64,000 bases of DNA from Antedon mediterranea (lineage: Eukaryota > Animalia > Echinodermata), in NCBI RefSeq assembly GCF_964355755.1, contig NC_092676.1:3449888-3513887 (forward strand), written 5' to 3'. Made by a program: the position numbers and the translations under genes. The notes beneath the pieces are model-generated. The model saw only the letters and a list, made by a program, of their open reading frames with translations. It had not been told where the DNA came from and made no database searches. Shown here in pieces: positions 881-62,892 of the stretch. How positions within the stretch are numbered: position 1 is the first letter of the stretch; each line of letters opens with the position of its first letter.

Positions 881-884
881 TACA

Positions 885-2897
885 ATGTTTATAAAGACTT
901 ACCATCAACATTGTACATTGCTGTTGTACAAGTGCCTGGTTATATTGTATGGTATACTTCACTGTTGTTGTGCACAATCCTATACTTTTACAAAACAACC
1001 AAAATCTGTTCTTGTTGGACAAGGAAACACAGCATCGTTATCGTGTGAATGGAAACCAGCATTGAATGAAAACCATGTCGTTTACTGGTCAGCATACCCT
1101 CATGTTGATGGGTCGCAAGCAATCGATAGGTCAACTTTAAAGTACAATTTAACAACTATAGCAACATCTGCATATCTTTCCATTTTTAATGTTGATTACA
1201 ACGATGTAGGAAGATACAGGTGTGATATCTCGGAAGGTGGTGATTTATTCAGTCTTTCTGAAGAGGCTTCTGTAGTTCTAGGAGAAATAACGTGCAATCC
1301 AGAGAATGACAATGGTGAGATTGGAACAACGCTGACATGTTCTTATTTTACTTCTTATTATTCACGTGATATTGATTTACTATGGTATGAACACAGGAAA
1401 CAAATTACATCAGAAATGCAACAAAATAAGGCTATAAAATCAAGAGCTTTGACTGTTGAAGACGATGGAGCTGTATTTACTTGTACAGCCACAATTAGAT
1501 CTCAAAATCAAGTGATAGGAACTTGTAAAACTACTCCTCTAATATTGACTATAGCTGCCAAGATTGAACAATCACCGCCAGGTACACTTCAGGTTGGAGA
1601 TAGCTTTAACCTTACCTGCTCAGGGAAAGGTAATCCTGATTATTATAATTATACATGGACGTGGAATAACAAACCGGTAGGATCGTCACCAAATGAAAGA
1701 CGATTTTCAAAAGATAATGTGCTTACTGTGAATAGTGTTTCAAGCGGTGCAAATGGCAAAAAAGTTACTTGTACTATTAGTCGCAGTGGTCGTAACAGCA
1801 GCATAGCAACCTATACAGTGAACGTTACAGAGCAAATGACTACACGTTTGCAGTCGACATCTGGTACACCTACCCGCAACTCAATTACACGTCATCTAAC
1901 AACCAAAGTCCCTGATGACGTGTCCCCAACAGTAATGACAACACGTTTACAGTCGACACCAGGTACACATGCACACAAGCCAATTACGGTCGGACTATCA
2001 ACAACCAATGTCGCGCATGACGTTTCACCAGTAATGACTACACGTTTACAGTCGACACTTGGTACACGTACGTACAAGTCAATTACAGACCTATCAGAAA
2101 CTAATATCCAGGATATTAATTCTACAATAGTAATCATTGTCATCATTGGCGTAGTTGCGATAGCTCTTGTGATTTTGATAACAGCATTTATAATTTACTT
2201 TTTAAAGAAAAGGCACAAGAAACAGTACGACAAAGAAGAGACAAAACCCGAAAATGTACCATTGAAAGAACCAGTTTACGGTAACACTGAACAAAATATT
2301 AACAGTTCTGAAATAGATAATAATCTGTGTGAAAATGTGGAGACTATGTACGCAGAACCTGACATGTCAGCAAATGGGTGCCATGTTAAATATGACACAC
2401 TACAGAATGCAGTAAACATTGATAAAACTGATGATTATTTAGGTAAGCCAATGAAACCTAATGAAGCGAGTGATGCTAAGTCAAGAAAAAGGACAAGTGC
2501 CGAAAATACGGATATAATACAAGTAAGACCAACCGGACCAACCAAGGCCCACACTGTTAAAGAAAGTCTTGAAGATCTGTATTCTAAGCCTAACAAAAGG
2601 AATTCGAAAACGTTGATCGAGGCCCACAGTAAAGAGAATCTTGAAGATTTGTATACTAGGCCTAATAAGCCGACTGCAAGCAGACCAACCAACAATGTTA
2701 AAGAAAGTATTGAAGATCTGTATTCTAGGCCCAACAAACCAACGACAAGAACGCCAGATATTACGCACGAAGATCCTACTAAGAAAAACGTAGAAGGCTT
2801 AACGTACGCAGAAATAGAGTTTACAAGCGGTACGTTCCCAGCCCCTGAACCACAAGACTACGGGCTTGATTACGCAACTGTACAGATTAAGAAGTAA
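885..2897 (+). CDS. g1: single-ORF IgSF receptor (V type A, 2 C2-like Ig, mucin-like stalk, TM, tail T1 with 3x EDLYxxPNK and two C-terminal ITIMs)
   Basis: 670 aa ORF. Signal peptide ends HCCCAQ. Ig motifs LSCEW..W..DVGRYRC, LTC..LLWY..FTC and LTC..WTW..VTC. TTRLQST stalk repeats. TM IVIIVIIGVVAIALVILITAFIIYFL followed by KKRHKK. ITIM matches LTYAEI and LDYATV. Confidence 0.9.
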   Translation: MFIKTYHQHCTLLLYKCLVILYGILHCCCAQSYTFTKQPKSVLVGQGNTASLSCEWKPALNENHVVYWSAYPHVDGSQAIDRSTLKYNLTTIATSAYLSIFNVDYNDVGRYRCDISEGGDLFSLSEEASVVLGEITCNPENDNGEIGTTLTCSYFTSYYSRDIDLLWYEHRKQITSEMQQNKAIKSRALTVEDDGAVFTCTATIRSQNQVIGTCKTTPLILTIAAKIEQSPPGTLQVGDSFNLTCSGKGNPDYYNYTWTWNNKPVGSSPNERRFSKDNVLTVNSVSSGANGKKVTCTISRSGRNSSIATYTVNVTEQMTTRLQSTSGTPTRNSITRHLTTKVPDDVSPTVMTTRLQSTPGTHAHKPITVGLSTTNVAHDVSPVMTTRLQSTLGTRTYKSITDLSETNIQDINSTIVIIVIIGVVAIALVILITAFIIYFLKKRHKKQYDKEETKPENVPLKEPVYGNTEQNINSSEIDNNLCENVETMYAEPDMSANGCHVKYDTLQNAVNIDKTDDYLGKPMKPNEASDAKSRKRTSAENTDIIQVRPTGPTKAHTVKESLEDLYSKPNKRNSKTLIEAHSKENLEDLYTRPNKPTASRPTNNVKESIEDLYSRPNKPTTRTPDITHEDPTKKNVEGLTYAEIEFTSGTFPAPEPQDYGLDYATVQIKK

Positions 2898-4041
2898 CGT
2901 AATATTGTTACGTAACCGTTACGTATTTACCGTTTACGTTGTAACAATTTTGAATACGTTTATCATTAACACATGTAGCAGAAATCAATATTAATCAACC
3001 TTCGGTATGTGACCTTACCATTTGGTCAAATCGCTCGTGACAGATTTATGCAATGTGTATGTAGGCCTAAGATTAAAATAGAAGATTTAAAATAACAGAC
3101 ATTATCAGAGTTGTTTCTGTAACTTTGTATACAGTTTTTCATATAATTGAGATAAAGTACCATAATATTCTATGATAAATAAATACATAAATAGCCTGGA
3201 TGCATTACAGCCACTATAAATATATAATTTAATAAAAGAACACTTGTTGGTAATTGTAAATATTACAGATGTACAGTCAAATAACTCTTAGATATCATAG
3301 CTTTAAATCCGTTTACTTAATAATAAACGTATTGTAGTTGAATACGGTTGCTTATCTATTTTGGTATTTAATTTAATATAATCAATCTTGTGCTATGTAG
3401 GCCTAATTAACCTTGCGCATATAAATAAGTTACTTAATATATTTTTTTATTTTAAAGAAACTGATGTAGGCCTACAGTATACCGTTGTATTTTAATGAAT
3501 ACTAGCAGAACAAGAACATCTCGAAAATGGATGTTTAGTTATTATCATTATATAATTGATTTATATTGATTAGATAGCTTAATATTATTGATTATGAAAT
3601 TAAAGTTATTGATTATATATTTGATATTGATTGTTATTGGGGTTTTTTTCAAGAGAAAGCCAAAAATGTGTGAGTTATTTTTTGTTCTTGTATGAGGAAA
3701 CAAACTGAAATAAATTATTTTAAAAATGAGGAGATTGAAACAACACTGACGAGATCAAGGAAGTACAGGAAACAATTAGCAACAGTTTTGAGTTATATAA
3801 ACACTAATATGAATGTACGAGGTTAGAGATTGGTGGTTACATTAATTCCCTTTCTGTTGATGGTACTTCGGACAATTCTCCCCGAGTGTTCAACAAGTCG
3901 GACTTCCGGAAAAAAGTAATTCAACATTACAGCAATTCCTACATGATCAAAAAAAAAAGAAGAAAAATGAAATAATTGAAAAAGTTTAAAATTAGTTGGA
4001 GATTGATGGTTTACTTTACTGTGGTAATTCGTTTAACTCTT

Positions 4042-4198
4042 AAGCTCTGTCTACACTATCAAACTAGTTTGACGAAAAAGGTGTGATGTGCCCAAATATG
4101 GTAGTGATATTCCAAAATATGGTAGTGGTATATCATGTCCATATATGGGAACATCACATTTTGTTGTCACATGAAGTTTGGTAGTGTAGACAAAGCTT
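4042..4198. mobile_element. Short MITE (other copies at about 5035-5182, 46250-46381, 50692-50843)
   Basis: TIRs aagctctgtctacactatcaaact / agtttggtagtgtagacaaagctt, with internal ccaaatatggtagtg repeats. Confidence 0.8.
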
Positions 4199-5424
4199 TA
4201 GTGTTTTTAAAAAATGACCCACATATCTCATTTTACTTGAAATCCATATACAATTTAAATTTCAAAGATTTTTTTTAATCTTTGGTGGTTCACCACCACC
4301 TTTATTCATTCAATGTTTCATTACATAATCTCTAAACATTTTCTACCTTTTTTCATTATTTTCTGTTTTTCCTCATTGATATCATAATTTTAACCTTTAG
4401 TACCATACCATTAATACAAAGTATTTACTTTTTAACATTCTTTTTTTTTAAATCCTCTATTTACAATAATAATAATAACCAATTGTATATTAATTAAAAT
4501 ACTTATTATTATACTTGTTTCTGCTTTCGGTTTTTCTTAGCTTGTGGTTCATCAATATTTTGCCTTGAATATTTAAAAGAGTGCACTGCGGTAATTATAC
4601 CGGTAGGCCTCCTGCAATGGTAATAAGTTAAAACCAAACCAACTTCTCTTTCTCGATACTGAAGTAAAACTATAATTTATAACGCTTTCGATTTAAATTC
4701 CAAAGATAAAAACCCACACAAAGTAACGCAAAACGTCAAAGTATGCTGTTTTTGCTTTAGATTTTCCTTCGTGGTTCATCAATATTGTACCGGTACTGCT
4801 GCAGGTAACAGTTAAACCCAAACCAAATTCTCGCTCTCCATACTGATAGTAAACTCTAATTTAAAGACTAAAACTAACGCCTTCGAGGAAGCAACGGCAA
4901 TGGAAATTAAAGGGCGACTTATTTTACTTAATTCGTTTTTTATGACATTAAATGGTCGCACAGACACTTCTGTTCATATCAAAACAAACAAGTTACGAAA
5001 ACAGTAAGCCCTAATAAGGAAACAAGAGCATATGAAGCACTGTCCACACTATCTAACTTTATGTAACAAGTTATTGCCCATAAACGGACATGATGATGTC
5101 ACATCACTACCATATTTGGGCATACCACTACCATGGGCACATCACACTTTTGTTGTCAAACTAGTTTGATAGTGTAGACAGATGCTGGTTGGACCAAAAA
5201 TAGATCGGAAATGAAAAATCGGAACATAAAGGCTTGCTTCTAAGTGTTCTCTATGTCTTGTCGTCACTTGGAGGGTAAACATATTATTATGTACACTTCT
5301 CTCCCAGGCTAGGTCACTGCGTATATTGTTACAGTATTTCTATCTATGTTCAGTATTATATACTTTCTTATTTACATACCACCTGTCTGGTATATAAGTA
5401 CTCTAGGCGTTGTTTTCTGTTCTT

Positions 5425-5456
5425 CTGATGATGAGAATTGTTTCTCGAAACATGTC
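5425..5456 (+). ncRNA. Minimal hammerhead-ribozyme-like motif, probable Penelope-like remnant (duplicate at 50979-51010)
   Basis: CTGATGA-t-gagaa(ttgt)ttctc-GAAA-CATGTC with palindromic ACATGT. Stem I pairing is not evident. Confidence 0.45.
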
Positions 5457-6138
5457 ACATTTTAAGGCAGTTTGCCTATTCGTTAAATGCCTCGCTATAT
5501 TCATATTAACTCGTAAGTTCGGTGGAATGATTCATGATTTATCTATTATATAATATGATTGTATGATTACCGTTGTTTTGATAGTAGTAAATGAATTTAG
5601 AAATATCTCTTTACTACACCAATCGGTATAAAATAAAACTGAGATAATAAGAATTTATTTATTTCAGTTAGTCTTATTTCTGAAGAAGCTGTGCGTGTGA
5701 AGTATAGAACAACAGTGTCAAGGTAAAACATCCAAGTATTTTCATTTCGATTGGTTTGTTAAAAATGTCTAAATTCCTAATCCGGAGGTAATTAAGTAAA
5801 TAAACACTGTATGGGGCATCATTGTATTATCACTGGATAACATACCACGCAATATAATAATAACACATATGAAACGATCTTCTAAAATAACTTTATAATC
5901 GGATAAACAATTATTTCTATATGATTGGATATTGTATTGGGCACAAATGAAATCATATCGCGTGAGGCTTTAGTAATAATGTCTTTCAAAAGAATGCGTT
6001 AAAACATCAACTATTCTTACATTGTAGTCATTACCATAAATGATTGGAATCTACAATAGTCCTAAACAATCTCAATTTTGGTAAGGAAGTTACTTTAAAC
6101 CGATCAAAAGCAATATTTGAGAATTGACATTCACAAGA

Positions 6139-7854
6139 ATGGCTCATTCTCAATATTGGACATTGCTGTTCTTCAAGTTTCTGATTATATTTCATATATC
6201 TCACTGTTGTCGTGCGCAGTACTACAATTTTACAGAACATCCACAATCGGTTCTCGTTGCAGACGGACAAACTACAACGCTATCGTGTGAATGGACACCA
6301 TCATTGAATAACAACCATCTCGTAACATGGACATACGATCGTGTTAATAGTCCTAAACGAATTGAAATTTCAGATACAAAATACGCATTAATGAACGAAG
6401 CAACATCTTCAAGTCTTTCCATTTCTAATGTTGGCTCTGGTGACGTAGGCAACTACATTTGTGAGATATTCGAATGTGATTCATACAACAGTGTCTCATC
6501 TTCTACATTTGCTTCTCTAGTATTAGGAGAATTGATATGTAATCCGGAGAATATTGTTGATATAGGAACAACGCTGATATGCTCCTTCACCTCTTCTGAT
6601 AATTCATATATTATTAATTTACTATGGTATAACAACGGAAAACAAATAACTTCGGGACAACAACAAAACAATGATTTAGAATCAACGGCTCTGACTGCCG
6701 AAGACGAAGGAGGTGTATTTACTTGTAAAGCCACTATCGGATTTCAAAGTCAAGCGACAGGAACTTGTGAAACTACTCCACTAGTATTTCCAATAGATGC
6801 AGAGATTCAACAATCACCACCAGGTCCACTTCAGGTTGGTGATAGCTTTAATCTTACCTGCGTAGGGAAAGGTAATCCTGAAAATTATAATTACGAATGG
6901 ACGTGGAATAACAACCCAGTAGAATCTATGACAGATAGTCGATTTGCAATTGGCAATATGGTTATTGTGAATACTGTATCAGGCAGTGACAATGGCAAAA
7001 TGGTTTCTTGTACTATTAGTAGTAGTGGTTACAGAAGTATAGCGAGCTATACAATAAACATTTTGGATGAGACGTCGAGTACAACTACAAGTATGTCGAC
7101 ACCAGATAGGCCTACACGTACGCAAAAACCAATTACGGCGGTCAGACTCACAATACCTGATGACCCGGATGACATTTCAACAACAGTAATGACTACACGT
7201 TTAAAGTCGACACTAGATACACGTACGCAAAAACCAATTACGGTCAGACTCACAACACATAATGTTCCGGATGACATTTCAACAACAGCAATGACTACAC
7301 CAGGTACACGTTTGCAAAAACCAATTACACATCAACTCACAACACATAAAGTCTCGGAAGACGTTTCCGCAACAGTAGACCTAATGAATACACGTTTAAA
7401 CACAACACCTGTTACTGTAACGCGTTCTATTACAGAAATCCTAACGGTTGTAATTATCGTAGTTGCAATTTTACTCGTCGTTTCTTTGATAATAATAATA
7501 AGCCTATGTGTTTATTTGCAAAAAAGAAAAAAGAAAAACACAACTCCTTCAAATCGACTGTCAAATAATCTTGAGCACGTTTACTATGACATTACGTCAT
7601 CTAGCGCACACGTGACCTCGACAGCCAGTAACACTAAGTATGATTATGTCATACACCCGTTCACACGAAATACGGAAGAATCCACTCCTGAGTACCTTGA
7701 ATTGGACGATGGTTTCCAAGATGGCGCACCAAAATCAGCAAGTAATACAGCCGCTGATTACGATGATGTTGCATCGGAACAAACAGATACTAATAACAAA
7801 GAGTACAAATACGAAAATGGTATGCTGCGGGATAAAGGTATCAGAGAGACATAA
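6139..7854 (+). CDS. g2: IgSF receptor (V type B, tail T2)
   Basis: The ORF track starts at TTG 6124; the first ATG at 6139 (MAHSQYW) matches paralog starts. Three Ig domains, about 4 stalk units, TM VVIIVVAILLVVSLIIIISLCVYL. Tail motifs YYDI, YDYV, EYLEL, DYDDV, YEN. Confidence 0.9.
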   Translation: MAHSQYWTLLFFKFLIIFHISHCCRAQYYNFTEHPQSVLVADGQTTTLSCEWTPSLNNNHLVTWTYDRVNSPKRIEISDTKYALMNEATSSSLSISNVGSGDVGNYICEIFECDSYNSVSSSTFASLVLGELICNPENIVDIGTTLICSFTSSDNSYIINLLWYNNGKQITSGQQQNNDLESTALTAEDEGGVFTCKATIGFQSQATGTCETTPLVFPIDAEIQQSPPGPLQVGDSFNLTCVGKGNPENYNYEWTWNNNPVESMTDSRFAIGNMVIVNTVSGSDNGKMVSCTISSSGYRSIASYTINILDETSSTTTSMSTPDRPTRTQKPITAVRLTIPDDPDDISTTVMTTRLKSTLDTRTQKPITVRLTTHNVPDDISTTAMTTPGTRLQKPITHQLTTHKVSEDVSATVDLMNTRLNTTPVTVTRSITEILTVVIIVVAILLVVSLIIIISLCVYLQKRKKKNTTPSNRLSNNLEHVYYDITSSSAHVTSTASNTKYDYVIHPFTRNTEESTPEYLELDDGFQDGAPKSASNTAADYDDVASEQTDTNNKEYKYENGMLRDKGIRET

Positions 7855-8076
7855 CAAAATAAAGTACGCAACTATCAATTTTCTACGCATGTATTGGAAC
7901 TACGATTACGTCACATTGGTGCGTACACGGCGTTGTTTGCTGATTAACGAGTCAATCGTGTACGAAAATTGTCTGATTTATATCTAAAGCAAACGTTAGA
8001 AGCATACAGTATGAAACTTAATCAAATAAATCAATCATTGTATAGAAACAACTATCCCCACAGAGGTCTTGTTTAA

Positions 8077-9469
8077 AGTGGAGCTCCACCCAGAAAATTA
8101 CTATATTTCATACATTTCAACTATTATTTAAAAATATCATCCCTTATACTTCATATTTTTTTGAAATTTTTTTCAATGAGTACGATTTTCTTGAAAATCA
8201 CGCCTTTTTGCGTTTTGGGGGGATACCTTGTAATTTCCTATTCTTTTACATGCAAAAGGGGGGTATATTTGAATAATCCTAAAAAATTCATTTCTTCACC
8301 AAAAAAAAAATGTAAAATATGTATTTATGTAATTTTTCCAGATCTTTCTATTTCTGGTATTTTTATCACGTATACATTGCGCAATTTTGCGTAAATAGAC
8401 ACTTTCCCCCGTTCGGGTCCAATTGGGTTTTTTATTTTGCTAGGGAGTACGATCACGTGACATTTTTCACAATCACACTACTGCAGCTGGCGATCTGTTA
8501 TTTTGTCACGATGTTATTTTTGACGGGCGAAAAGTATATTAAAACATTCTGAATGTGACCCTATTATGTTTCACAGTGTAATAATGTGATTATGAGATTA
8601 TTACTAAAATGTCAAATTTAACGAGATTTGAGAAAGATGTGGCTATATATTCAATAAAGCTAGGCCTAGGCCTACTAGAGTGTAGGTATGTACCGATGCT
8701 GCTTAGAGTGGCTTGGCCTCAGGCGCTAGCTAGGCTAGGCTGACAGCAGTGAAGTTTGTTTTGCTGTCACCCGACCTTGGCCTACCCATGGGCCATGATA
8801 GGGTGCCTGAATAGTTTCTTTTCAGTCAGGTCTAAGCTTGCACATCGCTTTACTATTCTTTACTACTCTTTACTACTCTTTTTCTGTATAGGATTTTGTG
8901 TTTCACAATTCTTAATATGCGAGAAAACCCAGGAACGATAAATGGGGCGAAACGACCATGCCTATGAATACATAGGCCTCTAGACAAAAATTCAAGGCTA
9001 GCTAGGCTGAGCAGACGGCTTAGCTAGGCCTAGCCCTACCTAGCTTAAAGTTAAAAGCAATCTGATAAGATTATAATGCTGCTGTTGTACAGTGAAAATC
9101 ATGAGGTTACATGTAAATTATACTGACATTCTTATCGGAAATATTACTTAGGCCTAAACAAATCGTATTAATTGTGTGTATAAAATTTATTCCCCATTTT
9201 TCGACACATAATTTACCAAAGGGAAGAAATTTCCACAATGCGTTCACAGTCGCTAAGTGTAACGCGTTTCGCGACGTATTGTAAACTAATAACCCCTAAG
9301 TTACTGAAAAACTGTAATTTGTTAAAAAACACTATTTTCTGACCGCTTTTTTAGAAATGAGTTTTTGGAAAATATTTCCGTATTTTTCCTGTTTTTTTTT
9401 ATGTAATCACTTTCAATTAAACATACTTAAACATAATATAAGCTGAGAAAGTCTGAGTGTAGCTCCACT
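8077..9469. mobile_element. Non-autonomous DNA transposon, Kolobok-like
   Basis: TTAA on both sides. TIRs agtggagctccac / gtgtagctccact. Empty site gtcttgtttaacatat at about 57070-57086. Confidence 0.8.
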
Positions 9470-10292
9470 TTAACATATAACATATCTGCCAAGATAAACA
9501 AGTAAATTGTAATTCTCATTATAATGGACTGTAACATGGATCTAGTTTAAGTTTTAAAAAGGATATGCTTTTAAATAAATTGTTATATAATATTATAACA
9601 TTTATTGTATATAAACCACTACCACCACCATGGTCTAATATAAATCTAAATAAATAATTGTACAGTTATACACATTTAAAATAGAATAAACTGTAGGCAG
9701 TTAGGCGTTATAGCAAAACATTAATTAAGCTTGTATAGACGCAACAAAAGCGAGTTGACCAATGACAAGCGACAGTTCGAATAATACATTGCTTATGATT
9801 GATCAAATCGCTTACGTTGCTTTAAGTCCTTGTGTTGCGTCTCTAGTGGGAACCAAGCATTAGGGGAAAATGTACGCAATAGTAGTACAAAAATTATATA
9901 TTATTTAAGGAAGCAATATAGATGAACAGGTTATGGTTAAATAACATAGTATAAAATGACTCTAAGTAACGAGAGGAAAGCCATGATTCAAAGTTGATAT
10001 TTATTTGATCATCATCAGGAGTCGATGATCAAATAAAAATTGAAACGTTGAACCATGGTTTGCATCTCCTTATTATTTAAGGAAACAATAACACTAGATT
10101 ATTAACGAGCAATACGACAAGAATAACACAGAAATTAGGAAGGCAGGAAGTTTTACGAAACTATTTTAAAATGTATTGGTTTATCAAGTTGTCCGGTATC
10201 GTGTTTTGTTTTCACTTTCATGATGTTTCTAAGTGTACAATGAACGAATAAAATAATGCCAGTCAATTATCTATCAACATATTATTGGTTAA

Positions 10293-10694: not shown

Positions 10695-10697
10695 TAA

Positions 10698-11291: not shown

Positions 11292-11369
11292 TTAAGGAAA
11301 GGAATTATAATATATGTACCCTAAATGATATAAGGAATACAAACTTACATTGGCTAAAAAGTTGTATGG

Positions 11370-11580
11370 TACACCCTAAACATTGGACTATGGTATTTTA
11401 CAAAATTATGCTTGATTACATTTAAGTATTATACACTTGTTAAAAACCACCGATATCGGTTATCGTTGCAAAAAGACAAATAACAAAGTCATCGTGTGAA
11501 TGGGCACCAGAAGTTTATGCAAACGATGTACTGAATTATGGTATAGATGGAGTGGTAAACAATTTATAAATTCAGAAACA
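11370..11580 (+). pseudogene. Old degraded signal-peptide/V-domain remnant (duplicate at about 57995-58110 plus 60009-60120)
   Basis: aacattggactatg..., gttatcgttgcaaaa... and tcatcgtgtgaatgggcaccag resemble QHWTLL, VLVA and SCEWTP coding sequence. Confidence 0.6.
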
Positions 11581-18071: not shown

Positions 18072-18419
18072 AGTATGCTATGAATTAAACTGGTAAATTC
18101 CAAACACAAAGTAGGCCTCGACTTTCGCTCGAATGTCTTTTTATTGGCAAATTATAATTGGAACTACTCGATTAACAAAGTCAACGCAAGGGCACTAAAA
18201 TTGCCCCGACAATCACTTTAAATATCAACTACAAAGTAAAGTAAACATTGCCTATACAATCTCCAAAACAGTCAAATTTGAATATGGAATGTTAGGGATA
18301 ATTTCATTGAATTATATATTTAATTTTATCTTGTCGATTAGTCTGTTAAATAATAACAGTTAGATCATGGCACTTAGTCTAGTGCTTCGATGTCAAAAAC
18401 ATGTGTTTCTTGAAGCATC

Positions 18420-31214: not shown

Positions 31215-31216
<2 letters not shown>

Positions 31217-31255
<39 letters not shown>

Positions 31256-44815: not shown

Positions 44816-45010
44816 GCTACCTCCATAAAGGATATAGATTTGAAATAACAAACTACCACAATATCTATGTTAACGCGGACTGCTGTGAGTTGTTTCTGTA
44901 ACGTTGTATACAGTTGTTCATATAATTAATATAAAGTACCATAATATTCTATGATAATTTTCTATGATAAATAAATACATAAATAGGATGCATTACAGCC
45001 ACTATAAATA

Positions 45011-45372
45011 TTTTATTTTTTTATTCTATTTTTTATTTTTATTTTATTTTATGTCTTTAGGCAATGTGGCCAAGGATTACCAATAGTGAATTAATCACTG
45101 TCCTATCAGATAGGTGGTAATCCCCCTGATACAGGGGCTATTTTGTGAACCAGTTCACCGGGGTAACCCCCTACTCTTTTCGAATAATGAACTGGGTTCT
45201 TTAAAGTGCACACAGGTTATAACTGTGTAAACTGGACCTACGGTTTATAGTTCTTATCCGAGAAGACTTGTTCCACCACCAGAACTAGGAGCGAGTCGGC
45301 CTCGAACCCTTGCCGATGTTGTTGGCTCTTTAGGTACGGTAAACGACGCCCCTGCCTTAACCGCTCGGCCAT
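45011..45372 (-). mobile_element. tRNA-derived SINE with a Deu-domain-like core
   Basis: Minus strand: A box tggccgagcgg, B box ggttcgaggcc, core taaagaaccc...cgaaaagagtagggggttaccccggtg, A-rich tail. Empty site at about 3215-3230. Confidence 0.75.
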
Positions 45373-50221: not shown

Positions 50222-51955
50222 ATATCTATAAGATTGCACTACGGTATATACCGGTACTGCAATGGTAACAAGTTAAAACCAAACCAACTTCTTTTTCTCG
50301 ATACTGGAGTAAAACTATAATAATTAGGCCTATAACGCCTTCGATTTAAATTCCAAAGAAAAAAACACACACATTAACGCAAACGGTTAAAGTATGTTGT
50401 TTTTGCTTTAGATTTTCCTTCGTGGTTCATCAATTGTACGGTAAAGTACCGGTATTACTGGTAATAAGTTAAAACCAAACCAATTTTTCTTTCTCCATAC
50501 TGATAGTAAACTCTAATTTAAAGACTAAAACTAACTCCTTCGAGGAAGCAACGGCAATAGAAATTAAAGGGCGACAAATTTTACTTAATTCGTTTTTTAT
50601 GACATTAAATGGTCGCACAGACACTTCTGTTCATATCAAAATAAACAAGTTACGAAAACAGTAAGCCCTAATAAGGAAACAAGAGCATATTAAGCCCTGT
50701 CCACACTATCTAACTTTATGTAACAAGTTATTGCCCATAAACGGACATGATGATGTCACATCACAACCATATTTGGGCATACCACTACTATGGGCACATC
50801 ACACGTTTGTTGTCAAACTAGTTTGATAGTGTAGACAGAGCTTAATGCTGGTTTGGACCAAAAATAGATCGGAAATGAAAAATCGGAACATAAAGGCTTG
50901 CTTACATATATACTTTCTTATTTACATACCACCTGTCCTATTGGTATATAAGTACTCTAGGCGTTGTTTTTTGTTCTTCTGATGATGAGAATTGTTTCTC
51001 GAAACATGTCACATTTTAAGGCAGTTTGCCTATTCGTTAAATGCCTCGCTATACTCATATTAACTCGTAAGTTCGGTGGAATCATTCATGATTTATCTAT
51101 TATATAATATGATTGTATGATTACCGTTATTTTGATATTAGTAAATGAATTTAGAAATACCTTTTTACTAAACGAATCGGAATAAAATAAAACTGAGATA
51201 ATAACAGAAGCTGTGCGTGTGAAGTATACAACAACAGTTTCAAGGTAAACCATCCAAGTATTTTCATTTCGATTGGTTTGTTAAAAATGTCTAAATTCCT
51301 AATCCGGAGGTATGAAGTAAATAAACACTGTATGGGGCATCATTGCATTATCACTGGATAACATACCACGCAATATAATAATAACACATATGAAATGATC
51401 TGCTAAAATAACTTTATAATCGGATAAACAATTATTTCTATATGATTGGATATTGTATTGGGCACAAATGAAATCATATCGCGTGAGGCTTTAGTAATAA
51501 TGTCTTTCAAAAGAATGCGTTAAAACATCAACTATTCTTACATTGTAGTCATTACCATAAATGATTGGAATCTACAATAGTCCTAAACAATCTCAATTCT
51601 GGTAAGGAAGTTACTTTAAACCGATCAAAAGCAATATTTGGGAATTGACATTCACAAGAATGGCTCATTCTCAATATTGGACATTGCTGTTTTTCAAGTT
51701 TCTGATTATATTTCATATATTTCACTGCTGTTCTGCACAGTACTATAATTTTACAGAACATCCACAATCGGTTCTCGTTGCAGACGGACAAACTACAACG
51801 CTATCGTGTGAATGGACACCAGCATTGAATAACAACCATCTCGTAACATGGACATACGATCGTGTTAATAATCCTAAACGAATTGAAATTTCAGATACAA
51901 AATACGCATTAATGAACGACGCAACTTCTTCTAGTCTTTCCATTTCTAATGTTGG

Positions 51956-54900
51956 GTCTTTCACACCCCCGCTGTTGTTCCATTGGAAGAGATGGTCTCC
52001 TTGTAGTCAACCGCACTGAACCACTCTCACTTAAGCATGAATGTATTATTGTCCCTCGCCCCGTATTAAACGGACTGCTGACATCACTTCACGTCCGGCT
52101 AGATCACCCAACTAGTCACCAACTTAAGTTATCCGTTCGCCGCCACTTCTTTGCGCTTGACTTGGACAAAACCATCGAACAGGTGTCAGAATCGTGTCAT
52201 CACTGTGCCTCGATCCGTACTGTACCCACCACTGCAATTGAGCAGTCCACTGATGATCCTCCGTCGAAGCTCGGAGTCACCTTTGCCGCCGATGTCCTAA
52301 AACGCGAGCGTCAACTTATTCTTGTTGTCAGAGAGACGGTGACGTCTTACACCCTTTCGTGTTTAATCAGCGATGAGAAGCACGATACTCTCCGCGATAC
52401 CTTGATTCGCTTATGCATTGGCATGTGCCCCGTGGAGGGCCCCTCAGCAACCATCCGCACAGACCCTGCCCCGGGCTTCATGGCACTCGTCCACGATCCC
52501 GTCTTACTGAAACATATGATTTCGATCGAAATTGGCAGAGTTAAGAACATCAACAAAAACCCGGTTGGAGAGAAAGCTGTACGCGAATTTTCAGAAGAGT
52601 TACTTCGGCAAGAGCCTGGTGGTGGTCCCATCTCACCGACGTTGCTTGCTGTCGCCACATCTCGTCTTAACTCCCGTATCCGAACACGAGGATTGTCGTC
52701 TCGCGAAATGTGGACACAGCGAGATCAGTTCACTCATGACCAAATCCCTATTTCTGACCGCAAGTTGATTATCAGCCAACAGCACCTCAGAGCCTCTAAT
52801 TTATTTATTTTTTATTTATTTATTACGGTATATATAAAATTACAAAAACAATAGCACATAGCTAATAACGTTTGTATTACAATAAAAAATATTGAAATGA
52901 AATCTATAAAAACTACAATAATAAATTCGGAATATACAATTACAAAATTTCACAATTATTCACTAAAATTTAAAATATTAAGAATTTTAAAATATATACA
53001 CAATTTTGGAAAATACAATTGCACTTTTATTTAAAAAAAAAACGAAAAATTTACATTATAATATACTAAAGTAAAACCTATCTGCACTGTTCTTTATTTG
53101 ATTATTATTATTATTATTATTATTATTATCTTTTAGTATAGGTGGCAACATTGCACAATTATTCACTAAAATATTCACAACATTAAAAATCTACAAAAAT
53201 ATATTAAATTTCGGAAAATAAAAGTTTACAGTGTATATTAATATTAAACGTTGTCTGCAGTGCTCTTCATTTGATTATTTTAGGCGGTAATATTGCACAA
53301 TCATTTATTATATATTTTTTTAATTTCATTTTTCACAGGAGGAATTTAATTTGTTTATAATATAGGGAATCGTTGAATTTTTATATCGGTTAGTTTTTAT
53401 TTTAGGTAATGTAAATCTATTGGGGTTACGTAATCTAGATATATTAGGTCTTTCAGCAGGCAGCATATTACGATGTCTCTCTGACTTAAGGATACCTTCT
53501 CCAAATTTTAATGTTAATTTTTCTCTACGTTCAGCAAGGCTGGTAATTTTGAGTTGAGTAAGGGCCGTATCATAGCTCTCATAGTCCTGGCCAAGTATAA
53601 TTTTGCATGCTCGCTTTTGCAACCTCTCAATTTCATTGGTCTGTTGTTTTGTAATGCTAGAGTGCCAAACAACACATGCATACTCAGTCAGCGGCCGAAT
53701 ATAAAGTTGATAAATACTTAACATGTCACCAATAGGTGCACTATATCCTCTCAATGCATAAAGAAGAAACATTCTTCTACTTGCTCTAGAGATAATACTT
53801 TTGATTTGGATATCCCAACCTAAATTGTCTTGTAGCTCAAGACCTAATAATTTCATACTATGTACAGTATCAATTTTTTCACCACTTATAGTAAATTGGG
53901 GGTAGTTTATTTGGGATTTCATAAAATTTATATTAATAGCATGGCACTTCGAAGGCTTGGGTAGCATGTCATTTTGTTTACACCAACAACTCAAGGAATC
54001 TAAATGGGATTGAAGTTCTGATGATGTACTATTATTTTTTATATTAATTATTTCTCCCAGTGTTAGATCATCCACAAATTTCCAACGATTATCAGTGGTG
54101 TTACCCGCATCATTCACCATAACAGTAAATATGCTGGGTCCCAGTTTGGTACCCTGGGGGACCCCACACGTTATAGTTCTTAGTCCAGAACAATGTCCCT
54201 TAAATTTCACACACTGGGTGCGATTCATCAGAAAACTGCTAATCGTTGGAATTATCGACGGTCTAACACCAGATTCTATCATCTTTGAAATAGCAACATT
54301 ATGGTTTATCCTATCAAACGCAGTTGTGAAATCAACTGTACATAATGTGGCGTAGGTCCCTGGCACATCAATATTGGATATAACCGTATTCAACATATCT
54401 ACTAAGTAGTGTGTTGTACTAGTTCCTCTCACGTTACCATACTGTTTACAATCCAATACTGGTTCGAAATCCGTTTTTAACCATCCCGCTAGGAATGATT
54501 CAAATACTCTACCCAATATTTTAGTTAGTGAAATAGGTCGTAATTGGCCAACCATTGTCGGTTTTTTAACTTTAGGTACTTGTACAATTGATGCGGTCTT
54601 CCACACAGTTGGAAACACCCCTTCGTTTAGACAGGTATTAAAGATTAAAAACAGGGGTTGTGCTATTTCAAAAGAAAACAGCTTAATGAGTTTCACCGGA
54701 ATATCATCTGGGTGGCCAGATTTATTGGAGTTTAATTTGTTTAAACTCTTCCAAATTTCTCCATGGTATATTTTGGGGGGTGGTTTTGTAGGCAAGTACG
54801 AGGGAAGTGTTTCCAATCTGAGTGGTGGAAGCTGGCAACATACTCTTGAGAAATGTTCATTAATTTGTTCAGCCTGTTCTTCAACAGATTCACCATAATT

Positions 54901-55715
54901 ATTTAATTTAACATTGTCTGACTTCTTGTTATATCACGCGCACAGCGAAAAGTCTAAGGCACCCGTCGCGAGTGCAGCACCTGACGTTTCTATTACGGTT
55001 GGTGATTTAGTCTACCTGTGGACAGATCGTCGCAAGACCTGTGCACGAGATCGCTATCTCGTTGTTTCTGTAGATGGAAAGTGGTGCAACGTCCGAAAGT
55101 TTACGCACTCACAATTGAGAAGCGCTACTTATCGTGTAAAGAAATCAGAGTGTTTTACTGTACCGACTGACGTTCATCATTCTCCCACACCAACCTCACA
55201 ACGCCACTGCGACACCTCTGATGAAGAACCTGATTTCACAGTTGATCCGTCTCCATTTCCTCCACCCGAGGTACCGTCAACTCTTTCTGCCTCTCCTGAT
55301 GAGGTGAACGACAAGTCATCATCCATACAGACCCCGGAAGAATCACCAATGGAAGTTCCAGCACAGTTGTCTCATCGCACATCCACACGTTCACGCAGAT
55401 TTCCTAGACATCTCGCTGACTACGTTCTTGATTTATAATGTTTCATTCGTATTATATAGTTAAGTTTCGACCATTCAATTTAGATTTTGAGTGCTTTTGC
55501 TTGCTTTGTTTTGTTTTTGACTTTTGTGTTTTATGAGAAGAGAAAAAAAAAATGATTACGCCAGTCTAGCGCCCCCTATCTAGATATATATATCATGGCC
55601 GCTGGTTGTTATGTTATTGTTGTGATATTTGGTTTTGACGAATAAAGATCTTATTCTACTTGAGTCTTACGTGTCCGGTCGTCTTTATTGTGGTGTGCCT
55701 TTTGCCTTACTGGCG
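51956..55715 (+). mobile_element. 3' portion of a Gypsy-like LTR retrotransposon (integrase, PPT, probable 3' LTR), split by a LINE
   Basis: HVRLDHP..CHHC, FAADV, IRTDPAPGF and NKNPVGEKAVRE (HHCC plus DDE). The frame rejoins as RASN|HAHSEKSK across the LINE. Purine tract at about 55535-55552, then tgattacg...aataaa. Confidence 0.78.
52801..54932 (-). mobile_element. 5'-truncated non-LTR retrotransposon (L2/Crack-group-like RT, ORF 53326-54816)
   Basis: LRPISLT, VDFTTAFD, GVPQGTKLGP and WKFVDD. A-rich tail at 52801 on the minus strand. Confidence 0.88.
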
Positions 55716-58110
55716 ATGGTATAACGACGGAAAACAAATAACTTCGGGACAACAACAAAACAATGATTTAGAATCAACGGCTCTGACTGCCGAAGACGAG
55801 GGAGGTCTATTTACTTGTAAAGCCACTATCGGATTCCAAAGTCAAGCGACAGGAACTTGTGAAACTACTCCGCTAGTATTTCCTATAGATGCAGAGATTG
55901 AACAATCACCGCCAGGTCCACTTCAGGTTGGCGATAGCTTTAATCTTACCTGCTCAGGAAAAGGTAATCCTGAAAATTATAATTACGAATGGACTTGGAA
56001 TAACAACCCAGTAGAATCTATGACAGATAGTCGATTTGCAATTGGCAATGTGGTTATTGTGAATACTGTATCAGGCAGTGACAATGGCAAAATGGTTTCC
56101 TGTACTATTAGTAGTAGTGGCTACAGCAGTATAGCGAGCTATACAATAAACATTTTGGATCAGATGTCGAGTACAACTACAAGTATGTCGATACCAGATA
56201 AGCCTACACGTACACAAAAACCAATTACGGTCAGACTATCAACACATGATGTCCCGGATGATATTTCAACAACAGTAATGACTACACGTTTAGAGTCGAC
56301 ACTAGATACACGACGTACGCCAACATCAATTACACATCAACTATCAACACATAATGTCTCGGAAGACGTTTCCACAACAATAGACCTAGCGAATACACGT
56401 CTACACACAACACCTGTTACTGTACCGCGTTCTATTACAGAAATCCTAACGGTTGTAATTATCGTAGTTGCAATTTTACTCGTCGTTTCTTTGATAATAA
56501 TAATAAGCCTATGTGTTTATTTGCAAAAAAGAAAAAAGAAAAACACAACTCCTTCAAATCGACTGTCAAATAATCTCGAGCACGTTTACGATTACATTAC
56601 GTCATCTAGCGCACACGTGACCACGACAGCCAGTAACACTAAGTATGATTATGTCATACACCTGTTCACACGCAATACGGAAGAATCAACTCCTGAGTAC
56701 CTTGAATTGGACGATGGTTTCCAAGATGGCGCACCAAAACCAGAAAGTAATACAGCCGCTGATTACGATGATGTTGCATCGGAACAAACAGATACTAAAA
56801 ACCAAGAGTACAAATTCGAAAATGGTATGCTGCGTGTTAAAGGTATCAGAGAGACATAAAAAAATAAGGTACGCAACTATCAATTTTTTACGCATGTATT
56901 GGAACTACGATTACGTCACATTGGTGCGTACACGGCGTTGTTTGCTGATGAACGAGTCAATCGTGTACGAAAATTGTCTGATTTATATCTAAAGCAAACG
57001 TTAGACGCGTACAGTATGAAACTTAATCAAATAAATCAATCATTGTATAGAAACCACTATCCCAACAGAGGTCTTGTTTAACATATAGCAAGATACATCT
57101 GCGAAGAAAAACAAGTAAATTGTAATTCTCATAACACGAAGGACAAAATGGACCGCACCATGGATCTAGTTTAAGTTTTAAAAAGGATATGCTTTCAAAT
57201 AAATTTTTATATAATATTATAACAGTTATTTTATATAAACCACTACCACCCCCATGGTCTAATATAAATCTAAATAAATAAGTGTACAGTTATATGCATT
57301 TAAAAAAAAAGAGTAAACTGTAGCCCGTTATAGCAAAACATTTTAAGCTTGTATAGACGCAACAAAAGCGAATTGACCAATGACAAGCGACAGTTCGAAT
57401 AATACATTGCTTATGATTGGTCAAATCATTTACGTTGCGTTACGTCCTTGTGTTGCGTCTCTAGAGAGAACCAAGCATTAGGGGGAAAATGTACGCAATA
57501 TTAGTACAAAATTATATATTAGGAAGGAAGGAATATAGATGCACAGATTATGTTTAAATAACATAGTATAAAATGACCCCAAGTAACGAGAGGAAAGCCA
57601 TGAATAAACGTTATACTTATTTGATCATCATCAGGAATCGATGATTAAATAAAGATTGAAACGTTGAATCATGGCTTGCCTCTCTTTATTACTTAAGAAA
57701 AGAACAACACTAGATTATTAACGAGCAATATGACAAGAATAACACAGGAATTAGGAAGGCAGGAAGTTTTACGAAACTATTGTAAAAATGTATTGGTTTA
57801 TCAAGTTGTCCGGTATCGTGTTTTGTTTTCACTTTCATTATGTTTCTAAGTGTACAATGAACGAATAAAATAATTCCAGTCAATTATCTATCAACATATT
57901 ATTGGTTAAGGAAACGAATTATAATATAAGTACCCTCCTAAATGATATTATGTACGAATATACAAACTTTCATTGTCTACAAAGCTTAATAGTTCACCCT
58001 CAACATTGGACTATGTTGTTTTACAAATGCTTGATTATATTTAATTATTATACACTTGTTAAAAACCACCGAAATGAGTTATCGTTGCGAAAAGAAAAAC
58101 ACCTACGTCA

Positions 58111-60000
58111 CAGGGGTGGCGCCATGATCTTCCCGACGCGGGGGCTACATTCCCCGACGAGGGGGCTATGCGAGCATCACAAGGCTGGGGGCCAGGGGGC
58201 CGCCAAGGGCCCCCGGTGGGGGTCCAGGAGGCGAAGCCCCCGGAAGTAACGCGTTCTAGCGTCATTTGAGGTCATTTTAATCAGATTTAGGGTAGCCATT
58301 TTTTCCATTTTTTATAATGCATAAATAAAATACTGCGTGCAAAAAAACGATGCGCGATGACTGTTTCAATCCATATTTTTCAATTTAAAAAATAAAAGTT
58401 CAAAGAAAATTTAGAAAAATAGAGTTGGAGGTCCTGGAAATTGGACTTATTATACTTCAAAACATGAAACAAAATATATAAGTCCCTATCATGGTTGTGA
58501 CTGAGCTAAGAAATGTTTGAAAAATAGAGATGTTAGGTCCCGGAAAATGCACTTCTTGTACTTCGAAATATGACCAGCTTTATTGTTGGGGCTGAGCAAA
58601 GAAAATGTTTAAAACTAGAGCTGCAGGTCTAAAATTGCATTTTATATTTTGGAAACATCAGGCCCAGAGGCTTAAAAACGCAAGCGTAGACCTTTTTCAG
58701 TCGGGGAAATAAGTTTATTCCTCCCAAGTGTATGCCTGCGTACCATCTGGACTTCCGAGTGGTGAGAAATTCATGACATACAGGAGGACATTGAAAATTT
58801 AATAACTTAGCTATAATAAGATGTTGGCTAAGCGAAAATGGCATGTTTTTTTGTTTAGTAATGGATGAAATATTTATTTTAGGTGCCCCACGGTACAGAA
58901 GGTTACTTGTAAATTAAAAAATTTTGTGAACATACGAACAATTAACATAATTCGTTTTTGCTGTAGTGTAGCGTACGTCGACACAGTACACGACGTAACC
59001 ATCGGTAAACTTCGCCTGGAAAATAACTACAGTACACATTTTGGTCCCTGGATGGAACATGATATCACGACCCAACGTTGAACGATTCGTACAAAGGGAT
59101 ACCGCCAGACAAGTGCGTACCTATAGCTATTGTTTAGTAGTAAGTTAGATCGCTGGCAATAATGAATGCATATAAAGTGCATAATATCACTCTGACGTAC
59201 TCTCACGGTCAATGAAACGTCGAGGTTTTCTAGGCGCTGAAGCTACGAAGTGAACGCGAACGAATTATATTCCCCGACAAAAAGTACCCGAACCGTCGGT
59301 AAACTTCGCCTGGAAAATAACTACATTACACATTTTGGTCCCTGGATGGAACTTGATATCACGCGTCTCGACCCAACGTTGAACGATTCGTACAAAGGGA
59401 TACCGCCAGACAAGTGCGTACCTAGCTAATGTTTAGTAGTAAGTTAGATCGCTGGCAATAATGAATGCATATACTGTAATTGCATAATAGCACTCTGACA
59501 TACTCTCACGGTCAATGAAACGTCGCGGTTTTCTAGGCGCTGAAGCTACCAAGTGAACGCGAACGTTTTTTACTGTATATTATATTCCCCGACAAAAATT
59601 ACCCGTGTTCCCTTCGGTAATCGTCGTTAAACTTCGCCTGGAAAATAACTACATTACACATTTTGGTCCCTGGATGGAACATGATATCACGCGTCTCGAC
59701 CCAACGGTGAACGATTCGTACAAAGGGATACCGCCAAACAAGTGCGTACTAGCTATTGTTTAGTAGTTAGATCTCTGGCAATAATGAATGCATAAAAGTG
59801 CATAATAGCCCTCTGACGTACTCTCACGGTCAATGGAACGTCGTGGTTTTCTAGGCGCTGAAGCTATATGAAGTGAACGCGAACGTTGTTTACTGTATGT
59901 TATATTCCCCGACAAAAAGTACCCGTGTTCCCCGACGGGGGAGCTAGGCTCCCCGACGAGGGGGCTAGAGCCCCCGTAGCTCCCGCTGGCGCCACCACTG
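58111..60000. mobile_element. Non-autonomous hAT-like element carrying three tandem repeats of about 300 bp
   Basis: 8-bp TSD ctacgtca (58103-58110 and 60001-60008). TIRs caggggtggcgcca / tggcgccaccactg. Subterminal cccgacg-ggggg motifs. Repeat units start at 59002, 59296 and 59624. Confidence 0.87.
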
Positions 60001-60885: not shown

Positions 60886-62892
60886 ATGGCTCATCATCAA
60901 TATTGTACATTGCTGTTGTACAAGTACCTGATTATATTGTATAGTGTATTTCACTGCTGTTGTGCACAATCTTATACTTTTACAAAACATCCACAACCGG
61001 TTCTCGTTGCTGAAGGACAAACAGCAACGATAGCGTGTGAATGGACACCTGAATTGAATGAAAACCATGATATTTCATGGAGATACCATCCTGTTCTTAG
61101 AAGGGGTCAATTAATTACAAAATCAACATCAAAATACACTTTCACAAAAGGTGCAACATTTTCAAGGCTTTCCATTTTAAATGTTGATTTTTATGATGTA
61201 GGAACATGCTTGTGTCGTATCTCCGAAGGTGATGGTGTATACAGTTCTTCTAAAACTACTTATGTAGCGCTAGTATTAGCGTGTAGTCCAGAATATGATA
61301 ATGGTGAAATAGAAACAACGATAACATGTTCTTATACTTCATCTTATCTTCTATATTCTATTGATTTACTATGGTATAAAGACGGAAATGTAATTACTTC
61401 AGCAACAACACAAAATAGTCTTTCAAAATCAAGGATTTTGACTGCTGAAGACGATGGAGCTGTGTTTACTTGTAAAGCTTTCATCTCAAATCATGTAATA
61501 GGAACTTGTGAAACTATTCCGCTAATATTGAACATAGATACAGAGATTGAACAATCACCACCAGGTCCACTTCAGGTTGGTGATAGCTTTAACCTTACCT
61601 GCTCAGGGAAAGGTAATCCTGATTATTATAAGTATGTATGGACGTGGAATGACAAACCTGTAGGATCGTCCCCAGATAAAAATAGATATGCAATAGCTAG
61701 TGTGCTTACTGCGAAGGATGTACGAAGTACCAGTGACAAAAAAGTTACTTGTACCATTAGTCGTGATGGTCGTAATAGCAGTACAGCGAGACATACAATA
61801 AATGTTGCAGAAAATACGCAAAGTACAACTGCATGTTCACGCACACCACACGGTAGGTCTACTGTTACAGACCCACTATCAGCAAACAATGTCACAGACA
61901 ATGAGCCACAAACATTGATTATTGTCATTGGCGTAGTTGCAACAGTTATTGTGATTTTGATAACAGCAATTGTAATTTACATTTTACATAAAAGGCGTAA
62001 GAAACATGACAAAAAGACAAAACCTGAAAATGTACCATTGAAAGAACCAATGCATGGCAACACTGATCAAGAAATTATTATTAAAACGCGCGTAGATGGC
62101 CCTCTGCGCGAAACGTTGGTGACCGATGTGGCTATATATGATGAACCTACAATGTCAGACACACATGGAAACTGGGAGATTGTTTACGAAGACCCTGACG
62201 TACCACCACACGACCAATTAACAGAAAAAGATAAGTATGATTATGTTGCATCAGAAGAAATGACAGTTGAAAGAGAGAGCAAAACCGAGTATGACTATGC
62301 GGCAACAACAGACACCCACAGTGCCGAGAAGACAACTGAACGACACAACTATGATTATGTGGTATCAGCAGACATCCACAGAACAGAAAATGAATATGAC
62401 GATGTAACATCAGCAGACGATCAAAACGATGAAACAGACAGGGAAAATGAGTATGATTATGTGGAAACACCAGGCATAGGCTCCACAGAAAAAGAAGGCT
62501 TTGCAGAATACATTGAACTTGTTGATGACAACGCCGATGTCGAATGTCATCAGAGGAAGCCACTAACAACTAATATGCCTGCTGCATCCAAGTACAATGA
62601 TGTTTCAATGTCACAAACTTATATTTCCATAAATATTAGAGCAAATGATAATGAGGCTGAGTACGAAAATAGTAAAGTGCATCGTCCCAAAGGTGTCTCG
62701 ACTTCTGATAACTTAAAGACCGAAAGTGTTAAATTATCACAGAGATCAAGAAGAGATGGAAAAACCATTTCAGATAATCGCGAAGATGACGTCACCAATG
62801 TGCATGCGAGTAAATTTGAAGTACGTGATACAAACGACGTGTACGAAAATGCATCGGTACGCAGAAAAGCAGCGAAGTGTGCTAAGAAATAG
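60886..62892 (+). CDS. g12: IgSF receptor (V type C, short stalk, tail T3)
   Basis: 668 aa ORF. V resembles g3/g5, TM and tail resemble g6/g8, and the 3' flank resembles g5. Confidence 0.88.
   Translation: MAHHQYCTLLLYKYLIILYSVFHCCCAQSYTFTKHPQPVLVAEGQTATIACEWTPELNENHDISWRYHPVLRRGQLITKSTSKYTFTKGATFSRLSILNVDFYDVGTCLCRISEGDGVYSSSKTTYVALVLACSPEYDNGEIETTITCSYTSSYLLYSIDLLWYKDGNVITSATTQNSLSKSRILTAEDDGAVFTCKAFISNHVIGTCETIPLILNIDTEIEQSPPGPLQVGDSFNLTCSGKGNPDYYKYVWTWNDKPVGSSPDKNRYAIASVLTAKDVRSTSDKKVTCTISRDGRNSSTARHTINVAENTQSTTACSRTPHGRSTVTDPLSANNVTDNEPQTLIIVIGVVATVIVILITAIVIYILHKRRKKHDKKTKPENVPLKEPMHGNTDQEIIIKTRVDGPLRETLVTDVAIYDEPTMSDTHGNWEIVYEDPDVPPHDQLTEKDKYDYVASEEMTVERESKTEYDYAATTDTHSAEKTTERHNYDYVVSADIHRTENEYDDVTSADDQNDETDRENEYDYVETPGIGSTEKEGFAEYIELVDDNADVECHQRKPLTTNMPAASKYNDVSMSQTYISINIRANDNEAEYENSKVHRPKGVSTSDNLKTESVKLSQRSRRDGKTISDNREDDVTNVHASKFEVRDTNDVYENASVRRKAAKCAKK

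Follow-up and report, generated by a model that had tools for sequence, protein, structure and literature searches.

A tandem array of three-Ig receptor genes with tyrosine-motif tails in the echinoderm Antedon mediterranea, a candidate paired recognition family

Described Ig receptor families and the Antedon array

Echinoderm immunity is known through the TLR, NLR, SRCR, and Transformer families. Here we describe a tandem array of genes for receptors with three immunoglobulin (Ig) domains (D1 to D3), a stalk, a transmembrane (TM) segment, and a tyrosine-motif tail in the echinoderm Antedon mediterranea (RefSeq assembly GCF_964355755.1, contig NC_092676.1, positions 3,449,888 to 3,513,887 of the forward strand); the window is this whole stretch of 64,000 nucleotides (nt), and coordinates below are positions in it. 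Among the nearest described families, SIRPs carry a V domain followed by two C1-set domains, with a charged TM residue in activating members, and Siglecs have an invariant F-strand Arg, a B-E intrasheet disulfide, and a D1-D2 disulfide. KIR and LILR proteins have C2-type domains only and belong to the leukocyte receptor complex; the CEACAM N-domain lacks a B-F disulfide, and both CEACAM and Siglec genes are multi-exon. Nectins and CADMs have a short conserved tail with a terminal PDZ-binding motif, and Kirrel/nephrin proteins have five or eight Ig domains and low copy number.

CEACAMs show selection on the N-domain and shuffling by gene conversion (PMC8860441), and CEACAM3 drives uptake via Nck, whose SH2 domain has the consensus pY-D/E-D/E-V (PMC3308951). 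Siglec-11/16 pairing is maintained by gene conversion (PMC5701461). Among invertebrates, the Hydractinia Alr genes are domain-level mosaics that include ITIMs (tyrosine-based inhibition motifs of immunoreceptors); they have one exon per domain, an Fn3-like spacer, many domains without Cys/Trp, and ITAMs (tyrosine-based activation motifs of immunoreceptors) (10.1101/2022.03.04.482883). Botryllus FcoR combines a V-sushi-C2-C2 ectodomain with a hemITAM (PMC12065747). In echinoderms, the sea-urchin TLRs are single-exon genes with ∼26% pseudogenes and positive selection on one ectodomain face (PMC3367398), and V-C1 Ig transmembrane receptors are mentioned in a sea-urchin genome survey (PMC3308324).

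A preliminary description of the window, made from the sequence alone, had claimed nine intact paralogs on one strand and at least three dead ones. Open reading frame (ORF) listing under the standard code confirmed nine intact genes on the + strand, encoding 486 to 742 amino acids (aa), and tblastn with translation of the intergenic gaps located three broken copies and three fragments. End-to-end alignment and conserved Cys/Trp bore out the described layout of signal peptide, three Ig domains, stalk, TM segment, and Tyr tail, the signal peptide being called in all nine from the hydrophobic N terminus alone. The further claim that each gene is a single ORF holds for the coding region, which is its scope, introns of untranslated regions lying outside it; no conserved splice acceptor was evident 5' of the ATG. 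The members of the array are as follows, with tail classes I to III defined below the list.

885 to 2897, +, g885: 670 aa; class I tail; D1-D2 resembling those of g25967/g32902
6139 to 7854, +, g6139: 571 aa; short tail of class III bearing YDYV, YDDV, and YENG
11366 to 11554, +, degenerate signal-peptide/D1 fragment
12254 to 14101, +, g12254: 615 aa; class III tail; stalk of 4.9 72-nt repeats
16611 to 18071, +, g16611: 486 aa; short stalk; class III-like tail with a class II-like VYEN at its end
18384 to 18721, +, degenerate class II distal-tail fragment
20939 to 22852, +, g20939: 637 aa; class II distal tail; 3' end 97 to 99% identical to that of g60886
25967 to 28027, +, g25967: 686 aa; class II acidic tail with YEEP, YEDP, two YDYV, and two YEN
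28302 to 29173, +, dead copy: frameshifted D1 fused straight to TM and class III tail; stops present
32902 to 35130, +, g32902: 742 aa; class II acidic tail
36520 to 36657, +, class II tail fragment preceding the dead copy at 36674 to 37132
36674 to 37132, +, dead class III copy, internally deleted
41700 to 43694, +, g41700: 664 aa; class I two-ITIM tail as in g885; divergent D1-D2
51660 to 51957 and 55717 to 56859, +, dead copy of g6139, broken by a 3.76-kb insertion with ∼60 codons missing at the break
60886 to 62892, +, g60886: 668 aa; three-way mosaic

The tails, 110 to 300 aa long with 5 to 19 Tyr each, are in general Tyr-rich as had been noted, g16611 and g20939 modestly so (3.7% Tyr), and they sort into three classes. 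Class I (g885 and g41700) combines three EDLY(S/T)xP repeats with a terminal pair of ITIM-like motifs, which in g885 are located here:

2799 to 2882, +, ITIM-like motif pair in g885, at aa 639-644 and 661-666

Class II (g20939, g25967, g32902, and g60886) is acidic and carries one to four YDYV and two YEN motifs, with Y(D/E)(D/E)P in three of its four members; class III (g6139, g12254, and g16611) is short and bears YDY plus a single YEN. Tail motifs are more frequent than in shuffled tails, and the Nck consensus is matched once apiece in g6139, g32902, and g60886.

The open frames are under selection rather than open by chance, since random mutation closes them fast (in 200 trials per frame, 5% mutation left the frame open in 0.5 to 4% and 15% in none), the mean synonymous divergence (dS) between paralogs is ∼0.3, and coding insertions and deletions are in frame or compensated, those of the flanks being mostly neither. 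Because duplicated blocks in a self-comparison include the flanks together with the genes (for example, 187 to 10292 versus 41024 to 57909 and 24026 to 27117 versus 30922 to 34067), the array grew by tandem DNA duplication. Alternatively, the copies could be haplotypes stacked artefactually in the assembly, or else retrocopies that are not expressed, which would suit the near-identical 3' ends of g20939 and g60886. We think this very unlikely: paralog ectodomains are 55 to 80% identical in protein, flanks were duplicated along with the genes, the coding and flanking indels differ as described, and contigs of sequencing run X1, which may be the assembly's own sample, match unique gene parts with 0 differences over 360 and 1083 nt. 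We conclude that the array is real and likely a functional family.

Selection on heads and tails and their exchange

We built an AlphaFold2 model of the g885 ectodomain on a 16-sequence alignment (mean predicted local distance difference test score [pLDDT], 84). All nine proteins pass the Pfam Ig_3, Ig_2, and I-set cutoffs. The "V" label originally given to domain 1 was upheld in part: six of nine pass the V-set cutoff, whereas in the model, which has strands A, A', B, C, C', D, E, F, and G, C' comprises only 3 residues and C'' is absent. Its structural neighbors are I-set domains and antibody V domains within one Z unit of each other, and on the model D1 is best called V/I-intermediate. D2 and D3, which are modeled without a D strand and have C2-set neighbors in the ESM Atlas, are C2-like. 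The D1 Cys pair on strands B and F is invariant (9/9), and D2 has four conserved Cys, the additional two of which, one on strand A and one on strand G, are likely joined in a second disulfide. The stalk spans 28 to 161 aa with 25 to 41% Ser+Thr, followed by a single TM segment per protein with no charged residue in any of the nine TM windows. Stalk lengths vary through in-frame tandem repeats of 72, 87, 99, and 102 nt (13229 to 13578, 1835 to 2087, 7113 to 7375, and 33867 to 34118), so that each head would sit at a different height. In g60886 a Cys replaces the Tyr of the D1 tyrosine corner and another Cys is added in the stalk; unpaired Cys also occur in g6139 and g20939, and in these three proteins they could promote dimerization or destabilize the protein.

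Mean pairwise dN/dS (nonsynonymous over synonymous rates) is 1.03 for D1, 0.88 for D2, and 0.83 for D3. Values this near 1, and the fit of about half of the sites to omega = 1, could mean that an Ig gene with an ordinary adhesive or developmental role multiplied in a region that is unstable and that its copies diverge mostly under relaxed constraint, a condition reported too for converted Siglec exons (PMC5701461). However, a strictly neutral model was rejected for all three domains, each of which needs a class with omega >1. For D1, comparison of site models M2a and M1a gave a likelihood ratio test (LRT) statistic of 35.5, with 22% of sites at omega 4.1; with gap-trimmed columns (75/105 retained) the LRT was 20.7, and the choice between two codon-frequency models made little difference. 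In 55 null simulations that included strong mosaicism the LRT reached at most 12.2, below the D1 value every time. The twelve D1 sites with posterior >0.9, five of them near alignment gaps, all map to strand C, C', F, or G or to the CC' loop, and none to A, B, D, or E (p = 6e-6; C-C' and F-G span 41 of the 102 model residues in this clustering test), and F-strand positions 110 and 112 are hypervariable. D1 is thus under diversifying selection on its C-C'-F-G strands. The tails of close pairs, by comparison, are under purifying selection: in the three closest pairs omega is 0.35 to 0.42 and Tyr residues are kept at 10/12, 15/16, and 16/19, with omega at 0.61 to 0.68 in three more distant pairs. 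Clustering of the omega >1 class on one face, purified tails, and the retention of three distinct tail classes make amplification under relaxed constraint an improbable account.

Sequence comparison further indicates that the genes are mosaics which carry similar heads on different tails, the two-ITIM g885 against the non-ITIM g25967 and g32902. The identity of g885 to g41700 is 93 to 96% upstream and 88 to 96% from D3 to the stop but 70 to 79% in D1-D2, where g885 is instead 88 to 95% identical to g25967/g32902 (84 to 85% in D1). Informative sites of g885 side with g32902 over g41700 in D1-D2 (142 versus 23) and the reverse in D3 (11 versus 29; p = 1e-12); the informative-site flips that match these identities gave p = 2e-9 and 1e-12. 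The upstream region of g60886 sides with g12254 (115 versus 12 sites), its D1-D2 with g20939 over g32902 (96 versus 22), its TM and proximal tail with g32902 (133 versus 17), and its 3' end with g20939. The D1-D2 data reject the D3 tree. Two sets, g885 versus g25967/g32902 and g12254 versus g60886/g20939, thus combine like ectodomains with unlike tail motif sets in one cluster, as expected of paired receptors.

A proposed paired recognition system and its rivals

On these grounds we favor, with moderate confidence, the reading that this is a tandem birth-and-death array of three-Ig type I receptors whose heads and tails recombine and which act as paired non-self recognition receptors. The C-C'-F-G face of D1 would bind ligand, and clustering of the receptors would let Src-family kinases phosphorylate the tail. 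Class I two-ITIM tails would then recruit SHP-type phosphatases and damp the cell; class II and III tails, through Y-D/E-D/E-V/P, YDYV, and YEN, may bring in adaptors of the Nck, Src, and Grb2 types and so promote actin remodeling, uptake, or encapsulation. Unequal crossing-over and gene conversion could shift heads between tails without exon boundaries, and given such exchange a ligand exploiting an inhibitory receptor would encounter an activating counterpart too, as happens for CEACAM1/CEACAM3. Together, distal-face selection, conserved tails, ITIM/non-ITIM head exchange, and gene death form the pattern known from vertebrate paired receptors. The diversified recognition family in birth and death that had been proposed from the DNA is supported by the D1-face selection, purified tails, dead copies, and head/tail mosaics.

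Among the closest described systems are CEACAM1/CEACAM3 and Siglec-11/16, which share an Ig head with C2 domains, positive selection on the N-domain, conversion-driven head shuffling, and ITIM versus Nck-type tails. The preliminary description had recognized no named family in the array, and each of SIRP, Siglec, KIR/LILR, CEACAM, Alr, FcoR, nectin/CADM, and Kirrel departs from it in at least one defining feature. CEACAMs differ from the array in its B-F Cys pair (9/9), one ORF per gene, and lack of an ITAM, and no specific homology is seen, CEACAM1 (E = 6e-6) ranking below titin and VEGFR. Unlike SIRPs, the array proteins have D2 and D3 modeled without a D strand, no Pfam C1-set match (0/9), C2-set Atlas neighbors, and no charged TM residue; unlike Siglecs, they have D1 Cys on B and F and hypervariable positions at 110/112 of the F strand; and unlike KIR/LILR, a V/I-type D1 with A', C', and D strands. 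The Alr family of Hydractinia and the FcoR family of Botryllus likewise consist of invertebrate Ig receptors in clusters, and they too have pseudogenes, mosaics of domains, and tails bearing ITIMs (10.1101/2022.03.04.482883 and PMC12065747). Relative to Alr the array has one ORF, a Ser/Thr stalk, retained core Cys/Trp, and no ITAM; relative to FcoR it has no sushi match at E 0.01, no space between D1 and D2, and no hemITAM.

Nectins and CADMs share a V-C2-C2-like ectodomain with the array, and CADM4 is matched over profile positions 10 to 273 (E = 4e-9), but the tails here measure 110 to 300 aa and their C termini lack the PDZ-binding motifs of nectins and CADMs (the Val end of g16611 being ambiguous). 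Kirrel/nephrin, with a weak likeness of D2 to nephrin C2 domains, differs from the three Ig domains and at least 12 copies here. The sea-urchin TLR family is similarly single-exon, pseudogene-rich, and positively selected, so that lack of introns is not new by itself (PMC3367398); it differs in its LRR-TIR build, with no Ig domains and no paired Tyr tails. The sea-urchin V-C1 receptors, compared by their description only, resemble the array as echinoderm Ig-V transmembrane proteins and differ in that D2 and D3 are C2-like here.

A possible but rather doubtful alternative is that the heads form a cell-identity code, binding self or sister paralogs in trans as do Alr, nectins, and Dpr/DIP, in allorecognition, neuronal wiring, cell fusion, or gamete recognition, with tails that signal match or mismatch. 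It speaks for such a code that nectin-type dimers adhere through their C-C'-F-G face as well, and the top structural neighbors of D1 include RIG-5 Ig1, Kirrel2 D1, and Dpr1 (Z 13.2 to 13.8, root mean square deviation [rmsd] 1.9 to 3.0 Å over 95 to 97 residues), tied with titin and VH domains. Alr genes are likewise mosaic with ITIMs (10.1101/2022.03.04.482883). Heads are also kept across two species: in contigs from a second species (organism B), the counterpart of the g6139 head shows 16 differences and no gap over 592 nt (97%) and that of the g41700 head 31 differences and no gap over 542 nt (94%). Frequent gene death and recent recombination, however, are ill-suited to a fixed wiring code, and no nectin/CADM-type C terminus is present.

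Several points weigh against the paired non-self recognition reading. The gap-free heads in organism B imply slower turnover than a fast arms race predicts. A canonical ITAM was found in none of the nine tails, and the label "activating" for class II and III tails rests on short motifs, with no ITAM and no charged TM residue; YEN by itself is marginal in class III tails (p 0.05 to 0.07, shuffles), and the Grb2 and Src assignments are presumptive. The site models were run with the author's own code on nine sequences with fixed topologies and naive empirical Bayes (NEB) posteriors, and the LRT values of D2 (7.8) and untrimmed D3 (12.8) are not clearly above the mosaic null (maximum, 12.2). As to exchange, the D3 data do not reject the D1-D2 tree (approximately unbiased [AU] test, p = 0.11), and no contig bridging any head-tail junction was found among the run contigs, so that the mosaics rest on the assembly.

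Ambulacrarian relatives and other features of the window

One-to-one orthology to a conserved adhesion family, which would have contradicted a separate family, was not found in word-index and profile searches. Searching 1.84 billion representatives with a profile returned 1861 hits, and among the best 150, those examined, there was no close relative and giant multi-Ig proteins dominated. Word-index searches with g20939 and with the family alignment returned 1 and 3 hits, generic Ig proteins only; Foldseek and VIA gave nothing beyond generic Ig matches (14 to 23% identity), the ESM Atlas generic Ig/C2 clusters and nothing more specific, and metagenome scans for such a locus 0/142 and 0/20 candidates. 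When hits were rescored by the D2-D3 module, proteins of brittle star, crinoid, and hemichordate origin ranked first. Once their cluster members and close relatives had been included, the 13 highest domain scores in a set of 172 proteins, which targeted follow-up had enriched, belonged to 12 named ambulacrarian entries and one unnamed. The nearest relatives are uncharacterized Ig-C2-C2-TM proteins:

Amphiura XP_072038515, XP_072038517, and XP_072046410; Anneissia XP_033121820
Saccoglossus XP_077864653 and XP_077865053; Glandiceps XP_078001388

These are 22 to 26% identical to the array proteins, and hhalign aligns array and relatives with probability 98.9 over 245 columns at 24% identity. By themselves, at this level of identity, they would place the host probably among Ambulacraria. 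They share the three-domain module with a four-Cys D2 and terminal ITIM-like YA(E/D)L motifs; the hemichordate proteins have one additional N-terminal Ig domain. The term "lineage-specific" used in the preliminary description therefore fits the array itself and not the module, which also occurs in proteins of brittle star, crinoid, and hemichordate origin. Of nine relatives checked, two (one brittle star, one acorn worm) repeat the NVEGLxYA core found in the ITIM of g885, in a comparison confined to these proteins. The RefSeq models XP_033121820 and XP_072046410 each contain two units in a row, apparently fusing neighboring receptor genes. Together with two Amphiura entries that are 86% identical to each other, these two-unit models suggest tandem arrays in other species. 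Tentatively, echinoderms and hemichordates might share an old, so far unrecognized, CEACAM-like paired Ig system that arose outside vertebrates. In it, intron-free genes would exchange pathogen-facing heads between an ITIM tail, with an NVEGLxYA core conserved across Ambulacraria, and ITAM-free Nck/Grb2 scaffolding tails, so that a single specificity would exist in an inhibitory and a phagocytic form.

In the literature surveyed, to which the 2006 sea-urchin genome papers and all supplements, which could list members, did not belong, no description of the family was found, nor by term look-up in PMC13673367, PMC11999971, and PMC11310086. An inhibitory self-sensing arm is likewise absent from the echinoderm immunity reviews surveyed, with 0 hits for ITIM, IgSF, and allorecognition in a 2026 sea-cucumber review. 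If the present reading is true, clustered Ig receptors with ITIM and activating-type tails would close this gap for the chordates' sister group and would inform the question of whether the logic of paired receptors is older than vertebrates or repeatedly evolves anew. New here are the D1-face selection with purified tails, the head/tail mosaics, the lack of ITAM and charged TM residues, and ambulacrarian relatives at ∼24% identity. With one ORF per gene, members can be counted and typed in different species and individuals straight from DNA, and separate expression of heads and tails should be easy.

Summed depth over the conserved D2/D3 junction was 1072 to 1441 against 14.4 on a unique contig (X1), and another base at 42398 appeared in 15 to 23 contigs per DNA run; both suggest more family copies and give no copy number. 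In run X8, guessed to be RNA, spacers were covered as in the DNA runs with no canonical splice joint, and the run says nothing on expression. Cover was low or absent at the g16611 tail (X5, X7, and X8) and the g41700 head (X8), a presence/absence hint unjoined by contigs and left unused.

Among the dead genes, the g6139 twin differs from g6139 at 12 bases across its first 98 codons. The dead copies at 28302 to 29173 and 36674 to 37132 have similar internal deletions, joining an N-terminal part to TM and class III tail, and each follows a class II gene. At 885 to 900, g885 has lost the family's common start codon and would use an upstream in-frame ATG also found in g25967 and g32902. An upstream block common to g885 (760 to 790), g25967, g32902, and g41700 contains GGAAGTTCC, which we take to resemble an NF-kB site.

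No tRNA genes were found in the window. A young long terminal repeat (LTR) element at 46837 to 50221, with 472-nt LTRs 99.8% identical, encodes a 676-aa ORF with SCAN, aspartyl protease, and integrase zinc-binding domains and no reverse transcriptase hit; it is probably internally deleted. The insertion at ∼51957 to 55716 in the g6139 twin carries an integrase-like ORF (+, 51949 to 52854) and a reverse transcriptase ORF (-, 53326 to 54555), and probably represents nested elements. Remnants at 43891 to 44643, starting 200 bases behind g41700, and at 30144 to 30650 resemble the C-terminal part of long interspersed nuclear element (LINE)-type reverse transcriptase ORFs. Between the dead g6139 twin and g60886, 58995 to 59886 holds 2.9 copies of a ∼328-nt tandem repeat.

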